A stretch of 32,800 nt of DNA from a virus: the UHGV virus genome UHGV-0201141. One strand, given 5' to 3'. The notes beneath the pieces are model-generated. The model was given only the letters and a program-made list of their open reading frames with translations. It was not told where the DNA came from and ran no database searches. A program made the translations under genes and the position numbers. Positions 20,378 through 32,254 of the stretch are shown piece by piece; the stretch's first letter is position 1; each line of letters opens with the position of its first letter.

Positions 20378-21790
20378 GTGGCAACTTGGCAACAGAGCAT
20401 CAACTCCGGTGGTTTTCTGGCTGGAATTGGTGCGCAAAATGAGAATGCGCCAAAGGCGAGTGATGTAAATGAGACACTGGCTTACATTCGTCAGAATAAT
20501 GAGGATGCCAGGCTTGGTCGCAACAATATCGGTCTGCAGGCTCTGCAGGGAATAACAAGCACAATGCAAGGATTGCAGCAATATGATCAGCAGAAGCAAG
20601 AGGCAGCATTCAGAAAGGATTATGCTTCTGCTATTCAATCAGGTGATCGACAGCAGGTGCGAGATTTGATGACCAAATATCCTGGTCAATTAGAGAAGAT
20701 TCAGTCTGGCATGAAGTGGGCAGACGAAGACCAGCGCAATTCTATCGGCACCTTAGCGGCTGGCGCACGCCTTGCGGCCTCGTCTCCAGAAGCAATGCAA
20801 TCATGGCTGCAAAACAACGCCAATGAGCTGGCGCGCGTCGGTGTTGACCCTAATAACGTTGCTCAGATGTATCAGCAGAATCCTTCAGGATTTGGTGAGT
20901 TTGTTGATCACCTTGGAATGGCTGCTCTTGGTCCGATTGACTACTTCAATGTTCAGGACAAGATGGCTGGTCGTGAGATTGACCGAGGCAGGCTGGCAGA
21001 GACAATCCGCAGCAATCAGGCTGGTGAAGCACTTCAGGCGAGAGGGCAAAACCTTTCCTATCAGTCAGCAATGACTGGGCACAATATCGCAGCACAACGC
21101 TTGGCTCTGGATCAGCAAGAGTTCGGGTTTAAGATGCAGCAAGCGCAGGAAAAGGCTCAGCAGTTGATTAGTGAAGCACCTAAGCTGTCAGTAAACATGG
21201 AAAAAGGCATCGAGACGGCCGTAAACAATGCTACAGCATCATCAAACTCAGCCAATTCTATGAGTGCGCTTGCTCAACAGTTCAGAGCAGAAAAACCAAC
21301 GACAGGTTTGTTCGGTAACGCACAGAACATGTTCGCAAAACTTACCGGAAGCGATACGACATTGCGTGATTTGCGCATTCGCCAAAATGCCCTTGTTAAC
21401 AGTCAGGTTCTTAAATTCCTACCTCCCGGCCCAGCAACGGATAAAGACGTTGAGATCGTTCGGCAGGGTGCGCCAACTGACATGGATAATCCTGAGACGG
21501 TCGCAAGATGGCTTGATGCGATGGCAAACCTTGAGCGACGAAACGCGCAGTTTAATGAGTTTAAAGCCGAGTGGATGAGCGCGAATGGCAACCCAGGACA
21601 ATCGCGCAATGGCGGTCAGATATTGGGGTTGGATGTTAAAAAAGGTGAATCATTGGGGAGTGCCGTTAAGCGGTATATGTCAATGAATACTGACGCAGCG
21701 CCAGCACAAGATTCGACTCCTTCAGGAGAACCACGGAATCAGGTTGGATCATATACCTCAAAATCAGGCATTCAATTTACGGTGGAATGA
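20378..21790 (+). CDS. Ejection protein (P22 gp20-like)
   Basis: 470 aa; position; GTG start with GGAGGTG RBS. Confidence 0.6.
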
Positions 21791-23628
21791 TGAAAGTAAC
21801 TGCAAACGGTAAGACATTTACCTTTCCTGATGGTACGAGCACCGAAGATATTGGCACCGCCATTGATGAGTATTTTGCTGGTCAGGCTGTTCAGCAACAA
21901 ACAGTTAATCAGGCCAATAATGCACCAACACGGGACGAACCATCATTGATGCAACAAGCTGGCGATTGGCTCACTGGTGGTCAAAGTGCAGGGCAAATTG
22001 CAGAACAGGCTGGTCGTGGTCTGGTAAACATACCATTTGACGTATTGCAGGGTGGCGCAAGTCTGATTAATGCAATCAGTCAGGGGCTTGGTGGGCCAAA
22101 AGTTTTAGATGATGTTTATCGTCCAGTAGACAAACCGACAGACCCATACGCACAAGCCGGTGAAACAATTGGTGGGTATTTAGTTCCAGGAGTTGGAACG
22201 GCAGGAAGCATGGCTATTGGATCGCTGGCAGAGGCCGCAAATCAGAAAGGCGATTTCGCACAAAATGCAGCCAAAAATGCCGGAGTTAACCTTGCCGCTC
22301 AGGGGGTTCTTTCCGCAGCAGCAAAGGGAATAGGGCGTGGAATAACGGCTATAAAAGGTGATATTGCGCCAGAGGTGGCGAAGAAAATTGCCACCTCAGA
22401 ATCGATGGGCGTGACACCAATGACATCTGATGTTATCCCGCCGAAAAATGCTTTCACTCGCGGCCTTACTCAGGACGCCGAGGGGGCTTTGCTCGGGACA
22501 GGCTCAAAGCGAGCGGAGCAATATGCAACGCGTAGTAAGCTGGTAAGCAATTATTTTGACCGTTTTGGTGAGTACAACCCTGATGATGTGGTGAAATCTC
22601 TGACCACCACGTTAAGGGGGCGGAAGGATGCTGCTGGCGCTGTTATCAATGACGTCACCAATAAAATGGGTAATGCCGCAGTTGATACCACAAATACCAT
22701 GAATGCTCTGAATACAGCGATCGCAAGACAGGAACGGCTTGGGACGTCTGCCAATCAAAGCCTGCTTACATCCTTGCGTAACCTACGTGAAGAATTAGCA
22801 AACCCTGCAACTGATTTGGATGTTACGTTTGATCTCTTGCGTCAGCACAGAACAGCATTTAGATCTAATGTTCAGGGAGATGCTATGGTCTTCCCCAACC
22901 AGGCAAAAGCAGCTACCAATATGGTAGAGAATGCAATGTCAAAAGACCTTCGTAACGCAGTTGCTAAAAACCTCGGTGCATCAGACGCAGCAAAATACCT
23001 TAAAGCAAATTCCGATTATGCAAACGTTTATAATAAGGTGCTTAATAAAAACATTGCCAACAAGCTCAACAAGGCAAGCAGTGAAGCCAGTCCTGAACTT
23101 ATAAATACCGTTGTATTAAGCAGAAAACCATCTGACGTGAAACGAATCTGGAGCGCACTGGATGATAAGGGGAAAGATGCTATGCGTGCAGCTTACGTCA
23201 GCAAAATAGCGGAAAAGGCCGGGGACTCTCCAGCCAAGTTCATCACTGAAGTTAATAAGCTGAAATCTCAGTCAGGCGGTGAAATTTACAACACTATTTT
23301 TTCTGGAAAGCACATGAAAGAGCTTGATGCTCTTCATGAAGTTCTACAGCAAACAGCAAGGTCAGACACCGCAAATGTAGTAACTCAGACGGGGCAATCG
23401 CAAGCCAACAGGATAAGGACGATTGGCGCAACTGCGACCCTTGGCGTATCAATGGGGCTTGAGGCTGGTTTTGGTGCAATGATGCGCTTGTATGAGTCCA
23501 AAGCAGCAAGGAATATGCTTCTTCGTTTGGCAAACACCAAAGCAGGAACACCAGCCTATGAAAGAGCGATAAATAACGCTGCGAATGCCATCAGACCGCT
23601 GTTTGCTACTGAGGCAACACAGCAGTAA
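21787..23628 (+). CDS. Ejection protein (P22 gp16-like)
   Basis: 613 aa; position; ATGATGA overlap with upstream gene. Confidence 0.6.
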
Positions 23629-23652
23629 CGTATGGGAAATTGGATTCAATCG

Positions 23653-24042
23653 CTAACATTTTCTTTTTACTTTTCCAACAAAAGCTTTGGTTGAATCCAT
23701 ATTTCCATAACCGGAAATGGTTTTTGACATTAAAACTGTTCCAGTAGGATGTATTACCCATGAGTCGATAACGCGTTGAGTTTCGCCATTCGCGCCGATT
23801 CCTATGATGGAGTTTTTAGACAATGCTTTGTAAGCCATGCCGCCCGCATCTGTCCCAGAATATGTGATGCTGGCATCTTCACCGTTTGTCTTAATGATGA
23901 ATGTTCCACTAAAACCATCTTCTTCCGGATGGAAATTATTTCGTTCTGAATAGCTTATTCCGCGCATATCTCCAACGACCCAGCACTCTGCTGTAGCCCC
24001 AAAAGATATGAATAAGAACATAGCAGTAAGAAATTGCTTCAC
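23653..24042 (-). CDS. Small secreted protein of unknown function (signal peptide, two Cys)
   Basis: GTG start at 24042 with AAGGAGG RBS 5 nt upstream; N-terminus MKQFLTAMFLFISFGATA then E, a typical Sec signal peptide. Confidence 0.6.
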   Translation of the reverse strand: MKQFLTAMFLFISFGATAECWVVGDMRGISYSERNNFHPEEDGFSGTFIIKTNGEDASITYSGTDAGGMAYKALSKNSIIGIGANGETQRVIDSWVIHPTGTVLMSKTISGYGNMDSTKAFVGKVKRKC

Positions 24043-24102
24043 GCCAACCTCCTTAGTTTTGAGCAGGATACCAGATGATAATGTGTCGCTTCCTAAAGGA
24101 TA

Positions 24103-24744
24103 TCAAAGCAACGGGATTTCAAGGTAAACTGCGGTTGCCAAAATACTAACATCTTCATTTCTAACAAGAATATTAGGATACATTGGGTTTAGGGATACTA
24201 GGTTTGTCTCTATTTCACCAATGTAAACCTGTTTGAAGCTCAATATTTGCTCTTTATCCAATGATGCTATTACATAATCTTTGCTTTTAGCTTTTACTAG
24301 AGGGCTGAACGTGACAACCGATCCTCTGGGAAAGCTAATACCTGAACTTGTAGTCATAGCTTCACCTTCAATAGTCAATGCAAATGCAGAGTCACCAACA
24401 TTGTATATTGCCGGATGAAATCTAGACGATGAATGTTCACCTGTGTTTAGGTAATGCATAACTTCATCTAGTTTGAGGATTGGTATTTGCTTTACCAGAA
24501 CGTCAGGCATGACGTTTTTTGTTCCCGGACCCTGACCTTCACCCAGAGCTAACCACTCAGCTGTAGTACCTAATGCGTTGGCTAATGCCTGCAATACCCG
24601 AAGCCGTGGTTTAGCCTCACCACCCTCGTATGCTGCTATTTGACGTTGAACAACACCAGCTAATTTTGACAACTGCGCCTGCGTCATACCCCTGGACTGT
24701 CTTGCCAGAGATACTCTTGATGGGAATTGATCGTCAAAATTCAT
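24103..24744 (-). CDS. CI-like repressor (HTH_XRE N-domain plus S24/LexA-like C-domain, apparently non-cleavable)
   Basis: N-terminal HTH (MTQAQLSKLAGVVQRQIAAYEGG); C-terminal segment DSAFALTIEGEAM...SFPRG...FKQV...LNPMYPNI parallels the lambda CI C-domain as I recall it, but with Ala where the catalytic Ser would be. Confidence 0.75.
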   Translation of the reverse strand: MNFDDQFPSRVSLARQSRGMTQAQLSKLAGVVQRQIAAYEGGEAKPRLRVLQALANALGTTAEWLALGEGQGPGTKNVMPDVLVKQIPILKLDEVMHYLNTGEHSSSRFHPAIYNVGDSAFALTIEGEAMTTSSGISFPRGSVVTFSPLVKAKSKDYVIASLDKEQILSFKQVYIGEIETNLVSLNPMYPNILVRNEDVSILATAVYLEIPLL

Positions 24745-24765
24745 TAGTTCACCATAAAAAATTCA

Positions 24766-24794
24766 TTGACTCATACTGAGTGTGAGTGAATAAT
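24766..24794 (+). promoter_or_regulatory. Candidate sigma70 promoter for the arc-like/antirepressor operon, with palindromic operator-like site
   Basis: -35 TTGACT (24766-24771), 17-bp spacer, -10 AATAAT (24789-24794); palindrome ACTCA-TAC-TGAGT at 24769-24781 overlaps the -35. Confidence 0.5.
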
Positions 24795-24843
24795 CAAACT
24801 ACAAAAAGTGAGATTATGAGTTTTTTAAAAACAGGAGTGCATA

Positions 24844-25017
24844 ATGACTGAAAAGATATCTTCCATCAAGCCGCGTCAGGTTCGTTTTACAGAAAAGGTT
24901 GATTCACATATCCGCGAATCAGCAAAAAGATGCCATAGGTCAATTCAGGCAGAGATAGCTTATCGAATGGAGTTATTGATGAAACTTGAGGCAAAGGGCG
25001 ATGTTGTCATCCAATAA
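24844..25017 (+). CDS. Arc-like ribbon-helix-helix protein (57 aa, below track cutoff)
   Basis: ATG at 24844 with AGGAG RBS; small basic product with predicted N-terminal strand then helices, resembling Arc/Mnt-type RHH repressors; directly upstream of the antirepressor. Confidence 0.55.
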   Translation: MTEKISSIKPRQVRFTEKVDSHIRESAKRCHRSIQAEIAYRMELLMKLEAKGDVVIQ

Positions 25018-25090
25018 AAATAGTGAAGCCCGGCAGTGCGCGAACACAAACCGGGCCTCTATGTCAGTAACCGTATGCAAGGAAACTAAC

Positions 25091-25717
25091 ATGAATATTG
25101 TAGCAAAATCAGATTACAACTTCCACGGAGTTGAGTTGGTGCCCACCCGTGATATGCATGGTGTTTGGTTTACGTCATCTAATATTGCATCTGCACTTAA
25201 ATATGCAAATAGCCGTGCAGTAACAATGATTTATAACAAGTATAGCGATGAGTTTAGCACCGGAATGACTCAGGTACTCGAAGTGAGTACCTCAGGAAAT
25301 TATCGCAAAAAAGTGCGAGTTTTCTCACTACGCGGTGCCCACCTAATCGCGATGTTTGCTCGCACTCCGGTAGCAAAAGAGTTCCGCCGCTGGGTGCTGG
25401 ATATTTTGGATCGGCAGGCAGAATGCTCACCGATTGCAAAACAGTTTACTGACGAAGAACTGGTTAATCTCTGCTACTTACAATTGTGGATGGAGAAGAG
25501 TCAACAAATGTGCAAACACATCTACCCAGGAATGAAGCAAATTTGTTCTGAGCTTTCAGGAAGGATTTACGATATCGCATATGAGACTCGCTATATGTCA
25601 GAAGAAACCAAGAAATCACTTCTTCGTGAAATGAAGAATCTTGATACCAACAATTTTGTCGTAAAGAACGCTCAGCCAATGCTGGCAAAACTGCGCGGCG
25701 AGGAATGGATTCATTGA
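25091..25717 (+). CDS. Antirepressor, Bro-N domain family
   Basis: N-terminus MNIVAKSDYNFHGVELVPTRDMHGVWFTSSNIASALKY fits the Bro-N pattern; AAGGA RBS; the track start at 24986 overlaps the arc-like gene and is rejected. Confidence 0.65.
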   Translation: MNIVAKSDYNFHGVELVPTRDMHGVWFTSSNIASALKYANSRAVTMIYNKYSDEFSTGMTQVLEVSTSGNYRKKVRVFSLRGAHLIAMFARTPVAKEFRRWVLDILDRQAECSPIAKQFTDEELVNLCYLQLWMEKSQQMCKHIYPGMKQICSELSGRIYDIAYETRYMSEETKKSLLREMKNLDTNNFVVKNAQPMLAKLRGEEWIH

Positions 25718-25805
25718 TTGGTGCGCCGGACGGCGCAAAAAGAAAACCGCCAGTGTGCTGCTGGCGGCCTATGTCACACCCTTACTACCACATAAGGAAT
25801 GCCTA

Positions 25806-26534
25806 ATGACTTTTAAGAATGTAGCAAACATCGGATCCGTTGTCACGGATAAAACCATTGACAGCCAGCGCCTTCTTGAGATGGTAAATCAGGCTCGTAG
25901 ACAGTGCGGTGAGCCGGAGGTTCGTAATAACAAATTCATCGAGAAAATTGAAGATGAATTGGATGGAGAGCACTACACAAAAAGTGTAGTGCAAAAAGCG
26001 AACAAAACTTCGATGGTTATCATTGAGATGTCAATCAAGCAAGCATTGCGAGTTGCCGCTCGCGAGTCAAAAGCCGTTCGCCGCTCACTGGTAGACCAAC
26101 TTGAAAGTATGCAAGAAGCGCACATTAAAAGCGGTAAATCAGCGAGTGGACTTGTTGAGTATCGTCAAGCGCGAACATTGAAAATGACGGTTGAAGCTGT
26201 TACCAATCTGTTCGATCTGATGCCAAATCTTGCGCCTGAGGCAAAGCAGACAGCGGCAGCAAGTATAATCAACCCGCTCGTTGGTTTTAATGCAATACCT
26301 CTTCCGGCAATAGAAGAGCATTACTACTCAGCAGGGGAGGTTGCAGAGCAGCTTGGAGTAACGGCCAACAAGATTGGTCGCATTGCTAACGCAAACAACC
26401 TCAAAACTGAGCAGTACGGGAAGTTCTTCCTGGATAAATCGGCGCATTCCAGCAAACAGGTAGAGGCGTTCCGTTACAATTCTGAAGGCGTTAAAGCACT
26501 ACAACACCTACTACATGGCTCAAATGTGGCGTAA
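25806..26534 (+). CDS. Hypothetical protein (possible antirepressor-associated or DNA-binding protein)
   Basis: ATG at 25806 with AAGGA RBS; track start at 25755 is a GTG inside a hairpin; last gene of the + strand operon before a terminator. Confidence 0.5.
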   Translation: MTFKNVANIGSVVTDKTIDSQRLLEMVNQARRQCGEPEVRNNKFIEKIEDELDGEHYTKSVVQKANKTSMVIIEMSIKQALRVAARESKAVRRSLVDQLESMQEAHIKSGKSASGLVEYRQARTLKMTVEAVTNLFDLMPNLAPEAKQTAAASIINPLVGFNAIPLPAIEEHYYSAGEVAEQLGVTANKIGRIANANNLKTEQYGKFFLDKSAHSSKQVEAFRYNSEGVKALQHLLHGSNVA

Positions 26535-26553
26535 CATTTTATAATGAAAACTA

Positions 26554-26577
26554 AACCCGCTTAATCGCGGGTTTTTT
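26554..26577. terminator. Terminator hairpin between convergent genes
   Basis: Stem AACCCGC / GCGGGTT followed by TTTTTT on the + strand; overlaps the stop codon of the mnt-like gene. Confidence 0.6.
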
Positions 26578-26818
26578 CTTTCCTTAGAATTTCAGCCGCA
26601 ACTTCTTTTACTCGTTCCGAGATTAATGAGGCCAGCCTCTCTTCTTCATCACGATACCCGCTTACAGGTGATGGTTTGGAGAGCGATTCTTCCATCGTAG
26701 CCACAATTTCGGAATTGATAGACCTGTTATTCATTTTTGCACGTTGCTTAATCTTGGCGTGCAACTCGTGCGTAAGCCTCAAGTGGAACTGCGCCTCATC
26801 GTATTTGCTGTACATCAT
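26561..26818 (-). CDS. mnt: Mnt-like ribbon-helix-helix repressor
   Basis: 85-aa product with F.LR...E...K.K.RA..N.RS.NSE...LSKPSPVSGYR...ERLA pattern resembling P22 Mnt as I recall it; the 217-aa track ORF is an over-extension across the tailspike start. Confidence 0.7.
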   Translation of the reverse strand: MMYSKYDEAQFHLRLTHELHAKIKQRAKMNNRSINSEIVATMEESLSKPSPVSGYRDEEERLASLISERVKEVAAEILRKEKTRD

Positions 26819-26950
26819 CAATGCCTCACCAAATGGGTGGAATGGCATCGTAAAACCTACTGTACAAATCAACAATCGTACCGTTTCGGTATGCAACAAA
26901 TACCAACCGTAGCCATGCTGCGGCGATTCCTTGTATCTGGAGCAAATTAA

Positions 26951-29656
26951 ATGACAGACATTACAGCCAATGTTGTAGTGAGCATGCCTTCGCAACTCTT
27001 CACTATGGCGCGTTCTTTTAAAGCCGTAGCTAATGGCAAAATTTATATCGGTAAAATTGACACTGACCCGGTAAATCCTGAAAACCAGATTCAGGTTTAT
27101 GTAGAGAACGAAGACGGTTCTCACATTCCTGTTTCGCAACCAATCATCATTAACGCTGCTGGTTATCCGGTATATAACGGACAGATTTCCAAATTCGTTA
27201 CCGTGCAAGGCCATTCTATGGCTGTTTATGATGCATATGGTGCTAAGCAGTTCTATTTTCCGAATGTGCTGAAGTATGACCCAGATCAGTTTGGCCCAGA
27301 CTTCAAAGAGCAGTTATCTCAATCAGGAGCATACATTAATGATGATTCAAAAGGTGATGCATTAATTGGGGTAAGGCAGCCATTTACCGGGGCTGTAACT
27401 ATAACTCAGCATGAAAACAATGCTCTTTTCTTAAATGTAAAACAATTTGGAGCAATTGGGGATGGGAAATATCATCCATTATCTGAGTGGTTTTCTTCAA
27501 TTTCTGAAGCAAAATCCTTATATCCTTTTGTTGACTCATTATCTCAGTCAATAGACTGGGCCGCGTGGCAAGCTGCCCTTAACACAGGAAAGGTTATTTA
27601 TGGTACTGATAATGCGTATGTAATAACGGATACGTTAACACCTGTTTCTGGTGGTGGGATAATTTGTCTTGGTGTGGGCAAATGGGTCTCAGGATATACT
27701 GCAACATTTGCTCCTGATATTACCACAGGGACCACATTCCTGATGTACGGTGTAGGAAATAAAAAATATACTGTAGATTGTGTTTCTAATATGGATGTTA
27801 GTGGTGGTGTGGTTTCTAATCCATCTTCCGAAGACCCGTATACAACAACGGCACCTGCGTCATCATATGATTTATTGGATTTTACTAACGGTGATGCTAA
27901 TGGGGCTACAAGAGCCACGCTTAAACCATTCTCTGCCGCAATATTGATGCCAGAGACAGGATGTGTTCGCCTTGAGAACTTTCGTATTGTTCCATATTTC
28001 AATGGGCTGGATGGTTATAAAGACATTGCAAATACCGGTCTTGGCGATGAGTGGGATGTAGGTATTTGGTCACGTGCGTCTTTTGGCAATGAATACCGCA
28101 ATTTGCAGGTGGTTGGATACTGGCGCAAGACGGCACTTTTAAAAACGAACATTCCTGTATCTGGCACGCTGGCCGCTCAGGGCGAGGATGAAAACTATTA
28201 TCACTGTAGATTCCAGGGATTCAAGGGTGTTTCGATCCGCGCCCATGATGTATTCCGAATTACAGCGGTAACGTCCAGCACTATCGAAATTCCATGGTCA
28301 GCAAGCCACACCTTCGAAACGTCCGGGGTTTTAAGATCTGTAGGCAGGAATTTCACTTATTCAGGATTATCCGTATCCGGTGATAAGTTAGTATTTACTG
28401 GAGTGTCTAACGCTTCTGAGGCAACAGTAGGTTCTACTATACGGCGAAATGACATAGATAACTTTGGTATGGCGGGAACGCAATTTTTCGATTGCTACAT
28501 TACCAGCCTGTATCACCACACACATCTGCTTGCCACATCGCAATACCTGTCTCAACCATTCAGCCGACCATCAGAGTGTATGGAGGTTTCAGGGGAACCA
28601 GTTCGCGGTGTACAGGTACATGCAGGAACCATTCAGGGATGGGATGATGTTCTTATTCATCTGCATGACTGTGGAAATATGAACTTTTACAGTACATATT
28701 TCGAAAGCCAGCAAGCATATGTAACTATAAATGGTGGTAATGCTATTGGTTATGGAGCACGTATGATAGCTTCCCGGCAATCAACAAGCTCATTACCATA
28801 TGCAGCAGGGAATACACGAGTGCTTAGAATGGTCGGGTGCTCTGAAGGCAATGGCGTTGACTGGGGTCCTGTATTTAACAACTATACAGGAGGAAGATAT
28901 AATTCTGGAGACGGTGTATTTAACCCCCGCGATGCATTTATAGACCATAAATCTCTTCCTGAGCAGTCAGGAGGTGAGTCAAGACTCGTATCACAAAAAG
29001 GAAATGCCAGAGTAGTATGTGGTGTTGGTAAAACTGTACTGCTTGGACCAACGTCAGGAGATTGTAATTTACAGAGTAATACCGGAAGTTTAAATATTAG
29101 AAGTGGGATAAGAGTAAGAGTCGGTCACGCTGATGGAACAGACTGGTGGTTGGCAGATGCTAATAAAATAGCTCCTGTTGATGATAATGTTAAAGCTATT
29201 GGACAGCCATCAAACAGATGCTCTGTTATCTATGCAGGAACCGGGTCAATCAATACATCAGATGAAACTCTTAAAACAAGATATGATATTCTTAATGCAG
29301 AGCGTGATGCCGCTATTGAAATAAAGTCAGTCATCTATAAATTTAAATTTAATGACTCAATTAATCACAAAGGAATTGAGTCGTCCAGGTATCATTTTGG
29401 CGTTGGCGCTCAAACCGTAGGGGATATTCTTAGAAAGCATGGTTTAAATCCTGAGCAATATGCTTTTTGGTGTTACGATGAATGGCCTGACGTATGGGAT
29501 GAAGAGGTGATAACTGAAGAGAGCACAGATCCTGATACAGGTGAGAAAATTTATTCTCAATATAAAACAGGAGATATGATTCTTGTAAAAAAAGCAGGAG
29601 GACGCTACGGAATTCGTTATGACGAATTGGCTATGTTTATATTAATGGCAATGTAG
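26951..29656 (+). CDS. Tailspike: P22-type head-binding N-domain, divergent receptor-binding domain, C-terminal intramolecular chaperone (peptidase S74-like)
   Basis: N-terminus [11 protein letters not shown]...[33 protein letters not shown]...LKYDPDQ matches the P22 gp9 N-domain; the last ~130 aa carry S74-chaperone-like motifs (TSDETLK...[11 protein letters not shown]). Confidence 0.8.
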
Positions 29657-29828: not shown

Positions 29829-31010
29829 CTATCTGAGATATAGCAATGTTGGTTGCTCCACCTTTTCATCAAGCCAGTCCGCCCACCACTGCATCATTTC
29901 TCTGCGCTTATCGAGATACTGAGCATGGTTGTAAATCCCGCGCACAGATCCGCCATTGGCATGTGCCAGTTGCACCTCAATAGCGTCAGCAGGCCATTCG
30001 TGCTCGTTCATAATCGTGCTGAATTCATGCCTGAATCCGTGACCGCTTTCCAGACCCTCATAGCCGATTTGTTTGATCACAAGTAGCACCGCGTTCTCGC
30101 AGATTGGCTTCTTCTTATCGTTGCGCCCGGCAAAAACAAACTCTGATACTGGTTTAGTGATTGAGCTTAGTGTAGTGAGAAGTTCAACCACCTGGTCTGA
30201 CATCGGGACAACATGAATTTTGCGTCCCTTCATCACACTGGCGTCGATGGTGATAATCATGTTTTCAAAATCGACGTTCTTCCATAGCATGGAACGAAGC
30301 TCTTTCGTTCTTAGGGCTGTGTAGCGTAAGACTTTGGTCGCAATGAGCGATACGATACTTCCTGAAAATGTTGCCAGTGCTTTGTTGAATGCAGGGATCT
30401 GGTCTGCTGGAAGAAACGGGAAGTTCTTCTTGCGGTATCCTTTCATGGCGTCTGCAAGGTCAGGTGCCGGGTTATATTTAGCCCTTCCGGTGACAATAGC
30501 GTAACGAAAAACCTCGCCGCATCTTCTGCGGGCTTTATTGGCTCGTTCCATTGCACCGCGATCTTCAAATCTGCGGATTACTTCCAGCAGTTGCATCGGC
30601 TCAATATCCTGAATCTCAAGACCGCCGATGATGGGCAAAATGTCGTCATCAAACATTTTGGCAAGTTCAGTCGCATACCCTACAGACCAGACTTGCTTCT
30701 TGTGCTCGTACCATTCCTTGTAAATGGCGCTAAAGGAATTGTTGTTAGACGAAGCCTTTTTCGCTTTTACCGGATCGATGCCAACCGAGATGTCTTTCCT
30801 CGCAGTCCATGCCTTATCCCTTGCCTCCTGCAAAGTCATAAGCGGATATTTTCCGACGGTCAGGATTTTCTCCTTACCGTCAATCTTGTAGCGAAGCTGC
30901 CATACCTTTTTCCCGGATACAGGGACATAAAGGTACAGGCCATTACCATCGAGAAGGCGGTATGGTTTTTCTTTCGGCTTTGCTGCTTCAATCTGCTTAA
31001 CGGTGAGCAT
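29829..31010 (-). CDS. intS: Tyrosine integrase, IntS/P4-like family
   Basis: C-terminal catalytic pattern HGFRHEFST...LAHANGGSVRGIYNHAQY; ATG at 31010 (MLTVKQIEAAKPKEKPYRL...) preferred over the track's GTG at 31046; lies beside the tRNA 3' end. Confidence 0.85.
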   Translation of the reverse strand: MLTVKQIEAAKPKEKPYRLLDGNGLYLYVPVSGKKVWQLRYKIDGKEKILTVGKYPLMTLQEARDKAWTARKDISVGIDPVKAKKASSNNNSFSAIYKEWYEHKKQVWSVGYATELAKMFDDDILPIIGGLEIQDIEPMQLLEVIRRFEDRGAMERANKARRRCGEVFRYAIVTGRAKYNPAPDLADAMKGYRKKNFPFLPADQIPAFNKALATFSGSIVSLIATKVLRYTALRTKELRSMLWKNVDFENMIITIDASVMKGRKIHVVPMSDQVVELLTTLSSITKPVSEFVFAGRNDKKKPICENAVLLVIKQIGYEGLESGHGFRHEFSTIMNEHEWPADAIEVQLAHANGGSVRGIYNHAQYLDKRREMMQWWADWLDEKVEQPTLLYLR

Positions 31011-31246
31011 GGGTAAAAATCCGGTGGGTAAAATTATTTTATCCACTTTTTACCCGTCATGGTGTGCGGCTGTCAACGATCTGACGCGAACCATTACGAA
31101 CTGTGAATCTATGGAAGGCTTGATATGCAGGGGATTTTGCGGACTAGTACGGATGGGAGCGAACTGATAAATGGTGTCCCCTGCAGGAATCGAACCTGCA
31201 ATTAGCCCTTAGGAGGGGCTCGTTATATCCATTTAACTAAGAGGAC
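31011..31246. other. Putative attL region (integrase-tRNA intergenic DNA plus tRNA 3' end)
   Basis: Inferred from the tRNA-int arrangement; core and arm sites not delimited because the second att copy lies outside the window. Confidence 0.4.
31172..31246 (-). tRNA. argW: tRNA-Arg (anticodon CCU)
   Basis: Reverse complement folds as a cloverleaf: acceptor stem GTCCTCT/AGGGGAC, anticodon stem AGCCC/GGGCT with loop CTCCTAA, T-loop TTCGATT, 3' CCA encoded. Confidence 0.9.
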
Positions 31247-31321: not shown

Positions 31322-32254
31322 TTATGCCGGGTTTTTATCATTTTTCTTAATGTTTTCCGCACGTTCTGCTTTTTGACGTGCTTCTACTTTGCGCTTGTTG
31401 CTCATGTCGTTACGAATCTGTGCATGACTCATTAACGCGAAGATAAAGGTGCCGCCGCAGATGTTCCCCGCTAAAGTAGGTAGTGCGAAGGGCCAGATGA
31501 AATCGCTCCAGTGCAGCGTGCCGTTAAACACCAGATAGAGGATTTCAACAGAACCGACAACGATGTGGGTGGTGTCACCCAGGGCAATAAGCCAGGTCAT
31601 CAATATAATCACCACAATCTTTGCCGCACCCGCTGCAGGAAACATCCATACCATAGTGGCGATCAGCCAGCCGGAAATGATCGCGTTGGCAAACATCTCG
31701 CTGGGGGTGTTCTTCATCACATCCATGCCGATTTTGACAAATGCATCGCGAGTTTCTTCATTGAAGATAGGCATATATTCAAATGCCCACGCAGCAATAC
31801 CTGTCCCGATAATATTACCCAGCAGCACGATGCCCCATAACCGCATAAGTAAGCCGACGTTGCTCATTGTCGGTTTTTGCATGACGGGTAGTACCGCAGT
31901 TACGGTGTTTTCGGTAAATAATTGCTGGCGGGCCATTATGACGATAATAAAACCAAAGGTATAACCGAGATTCTCCAGCAAGAAGCTGCCCGGCACGCCT
32001 TCCAGTTCGACATGAAATATCCCTTTTGCCAGTAGCGAAGCGCCCATCGACAGGCCCGCCGCAATGGCTGACCACAGTAGCGCCATTGCGTCGCGTTCCA
32101 GCTCTTTTTCACCATCCTGGCGGATATGCTCATGAATTGCCATCGCCCGGGAGGGGAGTCGGTCTTCATCTATTTCTATTTTTTTACCGCGCTCTTTTTC
32201 TTCGCTCTCAACTTCAATTTCGTCGCTGTGTTGATCAATTTTGTCGTTGTCCAT
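31322..32254 (-). CDS. yfdC: Formate/nitrite transporter family inner-membrane protein YfdC (host)
   Basis: 310-aa multi-TM protein; sequence and position next to argW match the E. coli yfdC-argW locus as I recall it. Confidence 0.8.
   Translation of the reverse strand: MDNDKIDQHSDEIEVESEEKERGKKIEIDEDRLPSRAMAIHEHIRQDGEKELERDAMALLWSAIAAGLSMGASLLAKGIFHVELEGVPGSFLLENLGYTFGFIIVIMARQQLFTENTVTAVLPVMQKPTMSNVGLLMRLWGIVLLGNIIGTGIAAWAFEYMPIFNEETRDAFVKIGMDVMKNTPSEMFANAIISGWLIATMVWMFPAAGAAKIVVIILMTWLIALGDTTHIVVGSVEILYLVFNGTLHWSDFIWPFALPTLAGNICGGTFIFALMSHAQIRNDMSNKRKVEARQKAERAENIKKNDKNPA

Follow-up and report, generated by a model that had tools for sequence, protein, structure and literature searches.

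The immI region of phage P22 is the textbook case of layered antirepressor control, combining two ribbon-helix-helix (RHH) repressors with an antisense RNA. The slot it occupies was named the ant moron by Villafane, Casjens et al. (2008; PMC2629481), who distinguished ten types in sixteen genomes and described the slot as being in rapid flux, several of the phages carrying truncated genes there. In the same study the CUS-3 and HS-1 types were found to carry antirepressor genes with apparently no arc, and it was pointed out that their control must differ from that of P22. A related gene order occurs in the lambdoid Salmonella siphophage SPN3UB, where a gene for a Mnt-like protein is divergent from a gene for a 57-aa Arc-like protein, itself followed by ant, a gene for an ORF6N winged-helix protein, and a small open reading frame (ORF). 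In the transcription factor-small ORF (TF-smORF) modules of Silpe et al. (2023; PMC10432266), the transcription factor switches on a divergently transcribed gene whose small product has no recognizable domain and inactivates cI.

Here we analyze the antirepressor cassette of UHGV virus genome UHGV-0201141. The 32,800-nt stretch of DNA examined, referred to as the window, covers the greater part of a P22-like (Lederbergvirus) prophage, with replication, lysis, head, and ejection genes leading to the tailspike gene. The cassette lies between homologs of gene 16 (21787-23628) and gene 9 (26951-29656), a place equivalent to that of immI in P22. The gene 16 homolog is a 613-aa ORF in the position of the gene for this DNA transfer protein in P22 and in phage JEP4, and the gene 9 homolog encodes a tailspike with the P22 head-binding domain (E value 5.7e-66). 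The region was compared with the P22 immI annotation, with JEP4, SPN3UB, and CUS-3, and with prophage and contig loci (denoted by L numbers). With a probability of roughly 0.6, we consider it to be a functional immI-type anti-immunity cassette in which the P22 logic would be retained with a maintenance repressor from another protein family and with one extra layer of control. All functional steps proposed below derive from sequence and comparison. What is new is a variant of the well known P22 immI system, not a new kind of system.

An earlier note on this DNA had proposed a rearranged immI-like antirepressor module. The parts that it listed (promoter, 57-aa gene, antirepressor, 242-aa gene, terminator, and Mnt-like gene) are all present at or near the positions it assigned, and the immI-like character is borne out by the P22-like genome, the gene 16/gene 9 slot, the strong promoter, the Arc-like first gene, and the antirepressor. 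The cassette comprises the following:

24103-24744, minus strand: CI-like repressor gene, 213 aa, with Pfam HTH_3 and Peptidase_S24 domains
24745-24843: intergenic region of 99 bp between the CI-like gene and the 57-aa ORF
24844-25017, plus strand: Arc-like RHH gene of 57 aa (RHH57), gene 1 of the operon, with an AGGAG ribosome-binding site
25091-25717, plus strand: antirepressor gene (ant), 208 aa, Bro-N plus P22_AR_C
25806-26534, plus strand: 242-aa ORF (p242), probably antirepressor-like, PHROG 1726
26553-26574, both strands: bidirectional intrinsic terminator, from a terminator scan
26561-26818, minus strand: Mnt homolog, 85 aa, RHH (Pfam Arc, 3.2e-15)

All five ORFs are intact. The CI-like gene is transcribed divergently from the RHH57-ant-p242 operon, and the terminator closes both this operon and the Mnt-like gene. 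As the earlier note had it, the latter is convergent with the operon at its far end and divergent from the tailspike gene, which starts at 26951.

The likeness to P22 immI goes beyond the slot between genes 16 and 9. In both, a strong promoter is followed by a gene for a small RHH protein and next by an antirepressor gene with a P22_AR_C domain, the junction of these two genes carries sar, whose promoter is embedded in the opening codons of ant, the operon terminator is upstream of the tailspike gene, and a repressor gene is divergent from the operon. However, the divergent repressor is a helix-turn-helix (HTH) plus S24-like protein of the CI/LexA family here and the RHH protein Mnt in P22. 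A divergent mnt with a Mnt operator at Pant, as in P22, was thus not found: the divergent gene encodes HTH_3 and S24 domains, the Mnt homolog is convergent and 2 kb away, and no Mnt-type palindrome is present at the promoter. The candidate promoter of the CI-like gene (PL, written P_L below) faces Pant, with starts ∼33 bp apart, whereas Pmnt and Pant of P22 overlap back to back. The N-terminal domain of Ant is Bro-N rather than P22_AR_N, the Arc-like protein is only ∼23% identical to Arc, a second antirepressor-like gene (p242) is present with its own predicted antisense unit, and an extra Mnt homolog of other predicted specificity lies at the far end. The CI-like gene occupies the exact place of mnt in P22; the earlier note was right to call its product repressor-type, but the gene is the divergent partner of the operon promoter and not merely upstream of it.

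SPN3UB shares with the window the order of divergent regulator, Arc-like gene, and ant, and the two ant genes share 93.5% DNA identity. It differs in having an RHH (Mnt-like) left regulator, an ORF6N gene instead of p242 after ant, and a location among tail genes. The cassette is probably the HS-1 ant moron, since Escherichia coli HS carries it; this assignment was made from the strain and not from Figure 3 of the 2008 paper. That paper contains no analysis of HS-1 control, whereas an Arc-like gene, a CI-like partner, sar, and a candidate second antisense unit are identified here, which together offer a candidate answer to the point left open in 2008 of how the antirepressor is controlled in the HS-type ant moron. 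The Arc-like gene is annotated as "hypothetical protein" in RefSeq. In the literature, of which our coverage was incomplete, we found no description of the CI-like partner, the Arc-like gene, or a second antisense RNA.

The antirepressor assignment, also made in the earlier note, is supported by domain matches (Bro-N 1e-10 and P22_AR_C 2.5e-13) and by a match to the PHROG "anti-repressor Ant" (3.6e-52). In its C-terminal domain the protein shares 29% identity with P22 Ant (BLASTP 1e-9); P22 Ant itself consists of P22_AR_N and P22_AR_C.

The length of the RHH57 protein is conserved at 57-58 aa, with an identity between types of only 28-35% and with Arg14, Ala27, Arg32-Ser33, Gln35, Glu49, Gly52, and Ile56 invariant. 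Its weak matches are all to RHH families (ParD-like 8e-4, Arc 0.011, RHH_5, and CopG/Arc structures at E values of 0.03-0.5), profile-profile comparison places it in register with Arc/Mnt (hhalign E value 5.7e-5, probability 66%), and it is a full-length match to PHROG 10182 (2e-37). With moderate confidence, we therefore take RHH57 to be Arc-like, in agreement with the RHH-like gene product of the earlier note.

The CI-like repressor and the operon promoter

The CI-like protein has an N-terminal HTH_3 domain (Pfam, 9e-13) and a C-terminal Peptidase_S24 domain (1.3e-12), the latter aligning with structures of the lambda CI C-terminal domain over ∼95 residues (1e-7). The two-domain architecture, the S24 fold, and a conserved lysine are shared with lambda CI, P22 C2, and LexA. 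Specifically, the general base is retained (SFKQ as against TFKK in lambda), but GEAM stands opposite lambda GNSM, so that the nucleophilic serine is replaced by alanine. A MAFFT alignment placed Glu-Val where lambda CI, LexA, and the C2 protein of JEP4 have the Ala-Gly cleavage site, and an Ala-Gly at this site was present in 0 of the 20 CI-like homologs compared. The alanine also occurs in one other subtype (L040/L042), and most of the distant homologs keep the serine. As the nucleophile is replaced and the scissile Ala-Gly bond is missing, RecA would be unable to inactivate the protein, which should be SOS-insensitive and Mnt-like in role.

A further difference from lambda CI, P22 C2, and LexA is that the CI-like gene specifies a second repressor outside immC. 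JEP4 and the GN02050 prophage both carry an ordinary immC elsewhere, with a CI/C2 protein that has kept Ala-Gly, serine, and lysine. The presence of this cleavable-type repressor indicates that the CI-like gene is not that of the main repressor. In most of the distant homologs (L008, L037, L041, and L043-L049) the S24-like domain is followed by a C-terminal extension of ∼50-70 aa, which looks like a coiled coil and is absent from the window protein, L007, and L040.

The following elements were located in and beside the intergenic region:

24766-24794, plus strand: Pant-like sigma-70 promoter TTGACT-17-AATAAT, 10/12 match to consensus, with a start predicted near 24801
24769-24781: 13-bp palindrome ACTCATACTGAGT, with 5-bp arms and 3 central bases
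24769-24775, plus strand: left arm ACTCATA of an inverted repeat, overlapping the -35 element and spacer, candidate operator core
24777-24788, plus strand: tandem TGAGTG TGAGTG in the promoter spacer, a direct repeat with a spacing of 6
24815-24821, plus strand: right arm TATGAGT of the inverted repeat, spanning ∼+15 to +21 relative to the predicted start, a second candidate operator core
24869 to 24841, minus strand: candidate leftward promoter P_L for the CI-like gene, with -35 TTGATG (24869 to 24864), a 17-bp spacer, and -10 CATTAT (24846 to 24841)

The rightward promoter, which the earlier note had singled out as strong, is the sole 10/12 match within the 3.7 kb of 23500-27200. In diverged versions of the cassette its -35 TTGAC(T/A) and a -10 element at 16-18 bp are kept in every operator type, at the same distance from both genes, and the spacer and downstream sequence vary by type, which is the picture expected of a real promoter with type-specific operators. 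Being near consensus, such a promoter would need repression rather than activation.

The 13-bp palindrome over the -35 element, to which the earlier note drew attention, is present in the window but is not a conserved element: it is degraded to ACTCATTCCGAGT in L017/L032, although the CI-like protein of these loci is identical, and it is absent from L007, which has regulators of the same type. Better kept are the arms of the longer inverted repeat. The left arm begins 3 bp into the -35 element in almost all types, and the two arms covary between types (ACTCATA/TATGAGT, ACTCAAT/ATTGAGT, and ACTCAT/ATGAGT) with a centre-to-centre distance of 35-47 bp. Four copies of TGAGT/ACTCA fall within the 53 bp of 24769-24821, as against 66 in the whole 32.8-kb window, and ∼0.1 would be expected in a span of this size. 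The arms may be the cores of two candidate operators, for which the support is weak. The GAGTG/TGAGT motifs that the earlier note proposed as possible additional half-sites are likewise present and enriched; the tandem is missing from L007, despite its regulators of the same type, and the case for these motifs is weak.

An attempt to assign the arms to a protein from the recognition-helix residue or the beta-strand type gave a suggestive pattern for the CI-like protein (Gln/His with CATA, Pro/Ser with CAAT), and with exceptions such as L008 no assignment is claimed. An RNA hairpin formed by the arms in the CI-like leader is a less favored alternative, the leader folds being no better than those of shuffled sequences (z scores of +0.4 to -2.0). 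A search for a LexA box at the promoter found none, the matches in the window occurring at chance frequency. Nor was there a Mnt-type palindrome (TACC-N5-GGTA) near 24745-24843 or in the promoter region of L004.

P_L is an 8/12 match to consensus, its -10 element overlaps the RHH57 start codon, and its start is predicted near 24834. The pattern TTGnnn-17-CATTAT is found at the P_L position in 11 of 12 diverged loci despite differing intervening codons. If real, P_L would face the rightward promoter with the two starts ∼33 bp apart. Within the same region AAAATTCATT occurs twice, 22 bp apart, over the CI-like start codon (24736-24745) and just upstream of the -35 element (24758-24767), and L007 has an equivalent ACTCAT repeat that is likewise 22 bp apart. 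This repeat could be a third binding site or a product of chance in A/T-rich DNA.

The sar homolog and a predicted second antisense unit

The four elements of the two antisense units, all on the minus strand, are:

25017-25090, minus strand: sar homolog, ∼74 nt, complementary to the ant leader and ribosome-binding site
25097-25125, minus strand: Psar-like promoter in ant codons 3-12, with -35 TGGAAG, a 17-bp spacer, and an extended -10 TGcTACAAT
25737-25811, minus strand: sar2, a predicted antisense RNA of ∼75 nt covering the p242 start codon, ribosome-binding site, and leader
25818-25846, minus strand: Psar2 in p242 codons 5-14, with GTGACA, a 17-bp spacer, and an extended -10 TGcTACATT

Comparison with P22 shows the RHH57/ant junction to encode a sar homolog. 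The junction aligns with the annotated P22 sar and its promoter, and the Psar-like promoter is at the position of the annotated P22 Psar. The predicted RNA folds into one hairpin at the 5′ end and a second, the terminator hairpin (25025-25059), with a U-rich tail after it, and this two-hairpin fold is common to both phages (z scores of -5.9 here and -5.3 for P22 sar). Among 12 diverse junctions, three of the seven pairs of the terminator stem are changed on both sides and yet remain paired. All Ant variants, irrespective of the N-terminal domain they carry, retain the motif TGnTAnnnT within the opening codons of ant. When 23000-27500 and the RHH57/ant junction were scanned against Rfam, there were only chance-level matches (RyhB 0.43; SymR 0.03-0.8), none above threshold.

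The product of p242 had been listed in the earlier note as unknown. Indeed, sequence searches of Pfam, NCBIfam, and the PDB gave nothing for it, but a probable antirepressor-like nature had been missed: the protein is a full-length member of PHROG 1726, "anti-repressor" (7e-101). Its AlphaFold model has a predicted local distance difference test (pLDDT) score of 70. Foldseek matched this model to antirepressor/KilAC viral models with E values down to 1.5e-9 and template-modeling scores of only 0.2-0.36, and the only matches in the PDB were weak ones to MerR/RacA-like winged helices (E value ∼0.2). Family membership and model together suggest a two-domain, antirepressor-like protein, with a winged-helix-like N domain and a KilAC/ANT-like C domain. 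The family has >2100 homologs in Enterobacterales, nearly all unnamed or hypothetical. On this assignment the operon would hold two antirepressor-type genes. Of the up to three repressor-type proteins around one antirepressor that the earlier note had counted, the three repressors therefore stand but the single antirepressor would not.

A second antisense unit, sar2, is predicted to face the p242 start. On the minus strand, its terminator hairpin (25770 to 25744) is followed by UUUUCUUUUU / TTTTCTTTTT. The hairpin has no plus-strand T-run and so cannot be the terminator of ant. Hairpin and minus-strand T-run are conserved across 36 distinct p242 junction sequences, save for one group (L119-L122) that lacks both, and accompany p242 even where another gene lies upstream; two of the nine stem pairs are changed on both sides and still paired. 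At the Psar2 position, TGnTAnnnT was present in 13 of 13 diverse loci despite differing N-terminal peptides. A covariance model built from sar homologs matched only the sar locus in the window and not the ant/p242 junction, which makes sar2 analogous to sar but not detectably homologous to it. The idea that the RHH57/ant and ant/p242 junctions are duplicates, raised by a common CTATGTCA beside the hairpin, found no support in this model.

Downstream of p242, JEP4 (L001 5509-5730, JEP4_18), L004 (4023-4244), and L005 (4035-4256) have an extra 73-aa ORF without a Pfam match before the Mnt homolog. This ORF is lacking in the window, where the terminator directly follows p242.

Mosaic structure and proposed mode of control

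The same module is found in the isolated phage JEP4 at 95.5% identity. The CI-like/RHH57 block was present in 28 of 5426 complete E. coli genomes at 98.8-99.7% identity (98.9% in strain HS), and an identical CI-like protein is encoded by 26 IMG/VR contigs. At 14 further loci, including those of two Yersinia genomes, the CI-like proteins are only 41-46% identical. Nearly all of these diverged loci have a small RHH-type ORF adjacent and divergent (L009 was matched by its C-terminal part only), and most have an Ant and/or p242 homolog downstream, so that the order CI-like, divergent RHH, Ant, and in some cases p242 is kept at this distance. The synteny of the CI-like, RHH, and Ant genes also persists where no Mnt homolog is nearby (L007 and L045-L049).

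The Mnt homolog aligns over its full length with P22 Mnt, and has the beta-strand residues Gln-x-His-x-Arg where P22 Mnt has His-x-Asn-x-Arg. A candidate operator for it lies between its gene and the tailspike gene:

26877-26893: candidate Mnt-homolog operator CGTACCGTTTCGGTATG, of the form 7+3+7, with one mismatch

At the same spot, a Mnt type that is 69-73% identical has the perfect palindrome AGACCACTGTGGTCT, similar to the core of P22 Omnt (GGTCCACGGTGGACC). The window contains one other exact TACC-N5-GGTA, inside gene 16. The Mnt homolog and its palindrome adjoin the tailspike gene also in VSe13 and in L004/L005, whose left end has a different Arc and a mnt reduced to a truncated pseudogene while the right-hand Mnt homolog is intact. 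The Mnt homolog thus appears to be a separate orphan unit with its own putative operator. Just left of the Mnt-type palindrome, CTGTACAAATCAACAA at 26860-26875 is one mismatch from the LexA-box core CTGT-N8-ACAG. This match is probably meaningless, since the window has no more of such matches than chance predicts and L129 has a changed CTGT.

Similarity between the window and L004 starts at the RHH stop codon, which marks the breakpoint of a swappable block of CI-like gene, RHH57, and promoter. This breakpoint, together with the occurrence of the Mnt unit in other settings, identifies the region as a mosaic of three parts: a regulator cassette on the left that can be swapped, a core of ant and p242 together with the antisense units, and a Mnt unit that is an orphan. 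The word "rearranged" in the earlier note, with its implication of a moved mnt, does not describe it: the Mnt unit is self-contained in L004, L005, and VSe13, and the left cassette is swappable.

We propose the following circuit. A strong constitutive promoter at 24766-24794, recognized by its sequence and conservation, would transcribe RHH57, ant, and p242 as far as the terminator at 26553-26574. In a lysogen, the CI-like protein, in which loss of the active site is apparent from the alignment, would bind the ACTCATA/TATGAGT elements over the -35 element and just downstream of the start and silence the operon, keeping the antirepressor off whatever the SOS state, in the role of Mnt. Upon infection, the promoter would fire before the CI-like protein builds up, and by analogy with Arc the Arc-like product would then shut it. 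The two antisense RNAs, each with an extended -10 promoter inside the opening codons of the target gene and with a terminator of its own, are predicted to block translation of ant (sar) and p242 (sar2) and could also act on read-through transcripts of the late operon. Judged by family membership, Ant would inactivate immC repressors of the C2/CI type by binding, and p242 would be a second protein of antirepressor type. For the Mnt homolog, the probable roles are autoregulation, an effect on transcription that enters the tailspike gene, or action on incoming phages; we see no sign that the ant promoter is under its control.

Several observations weigh against this circuit. The RHH assignment comes from sub-threshold matches (Pfam Arc 0.011; PDB E values of 0.03-0.5), and a single-sequence AlphaFold model of RHH57 is one long continuous helix; such a model is uninformative for an obligate-dimer RHH protein and was not used as support. 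The operator arms are only 6-7 bp long, their spacing of 35-47 bp is odd for one protein complex, the types L008 and L037/L046 match the arm pattern poorly, and to which repressor each arm belongs cannot be told. P_L is a moderate match to consensus. The sar2 fold is only modestly better than those of shuffled sequences (z score -2.1), and the -35 element of its promoter is inside conserved codons. Loss of cleavage is certain only for the window subtype and the L040 subtype, most of the distant CI-like homologs having kept the serine.

The CI-like protein might instead be an activator or sensor, as in the TF-smORF modules, that turns on the divergent operon in response to an SOS-independent cue and leads to induction via Ant. 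A divergent transcription factor, a small ORF, and an anti-repressing function are indeed the layout described in PMC10432266, CI-family proteins are able to activate transcription, and a retained S24-like domain might sense something. Nevertheless, we regard this as unlikely. The promoter is already a 10/12 match to consensus, a repeat arm lies within its -35 element and spacer in a repressing position, the small ORF encodes an RHH-like DNA binder instead of an orphan small protein, and the operon has sar, which belongs to the repression logic of P22. We give less credence again to the Mnt homolog being the true maintenance repressor, acting on the ant promoter at a distance, with the CI-like protein regulating only itself or the 129-aa moron to its left. 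That the Mnt homolog is intact and conserved, even in L004/L005 where the left mnt is a pseudogene, would fit this, but the TACC-N5-GGTA palindrome is missing from both promoter regions searched, the Mnt unit adjoins the tailspike gene in phages with quite different left ends, and the CI-like/RHH/Ant synteny is kept at loci without a Mnt homolog nearby.

Antirepressors under LexA control are known from the Gifsy phages, 186, and N15. Cleavage or inactivation of the CI-like protein after DNA damage, with release of Ant, would make the cassette an SOS-inducible system of this general kind. The LexA/CI architecture speaks for it, as do one RefSeq record naming the protein "LexA family transcriptional regulator" and the serine and lysine kept in most of the distant homologs. 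It is made very improbable by the alanine at the nucleophile and Glu-Val at the cleavage site, the lack of Ala-Gly in every homolog compared, and the lack of a LexA box at the promoter; moreover, the prophage already has a CI of the cleavable type, and an SOS-driven Ant would be unneeded. Least credible of all is that the region is an evolutionary patchwork in decay, its genes intact by chance and its circuit no longer working. The rapid flux and truncated genes reported for the ant moron (PMC2629481) and the mnt pseudogene of L004/L005 point that way. However, all five ORFs are intact, the block is nearly identical in 28 E. coli genomes and present in an isolated phage, and loci from different genera, at a protein identity of 41-46%, still share the gene order, the promoter positions, and both antisense units.

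If the proposed circuit is right, P22 immI logic can be rebuilt with a repressor of a different family, and the CI-like protein would be a natural example of an autocleaving repressor turned SOS-blind. The analysis also predicts a second sar-like RNA and an uncharacterized second protein of antirepressor type, from the p242 family of >2100 members. A bolder reading, which we put forward tentatively and at clearly less than even odds, is that the cassette represents a distinct and widespread anti-immunity class in Enterobacterales phages. In this class RHH57, ant, and p242 would each have a leftward promoter in their first codons (P_L, Psar, and Psar2), control of the operon would fall to two repressors, one of them an SOS-blind CI-family protein without self-cleavage, together with three transcripts that are convergent or antisense to it, and sar2 would be a new phage regulatory RNA acting on a second antirepressor. 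Antirepressors act in trans on other prophages, and such cassettes would therefore affect cross-induction of prophages in E. coli, the commensal strain HS included.

Neighboring genes

To the left of the CI-like gene lies one further gene:

23653-24042, minus strand: moron of 129 aa, secreted-looking

The 129-aa ORF product has a signal-like N terminus and belongs to PHROG 2651 (unknown function), and a Pfam search gave no match. The gene has a promoter match of its own, TTGATA-17-CATTAT at 24106-24078, and its occurrence is limited to a subset of cassette copies (L025, L034, and L044) and to phage Emek. The gene thus has the appearance of an independent moron, for which a surface or exclusion function is possible.

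The C-terminal part of the tailspike (26951-29656) has weak matches to an endosialidase catalytic domain and to an intramolecular chaperone domain (Peptidase_S74), which suggests that the receptor-binding part is self-cleaving and not of the P22 kind. P22-like phages have genes for O-antigen modification or integration downstream of the tailspike gene. In the window, two minus-strand ORFs occupy this position, at 29829-31046 (405 aa) and 31322-32254 (310 aa).

In CUS-3 (L053 2483-3012), two adjacent mnt-like genes lie upstream of a P22-type ant, with no annotated arc; CUS-3 is another uncharacterized control variant of the same slot.

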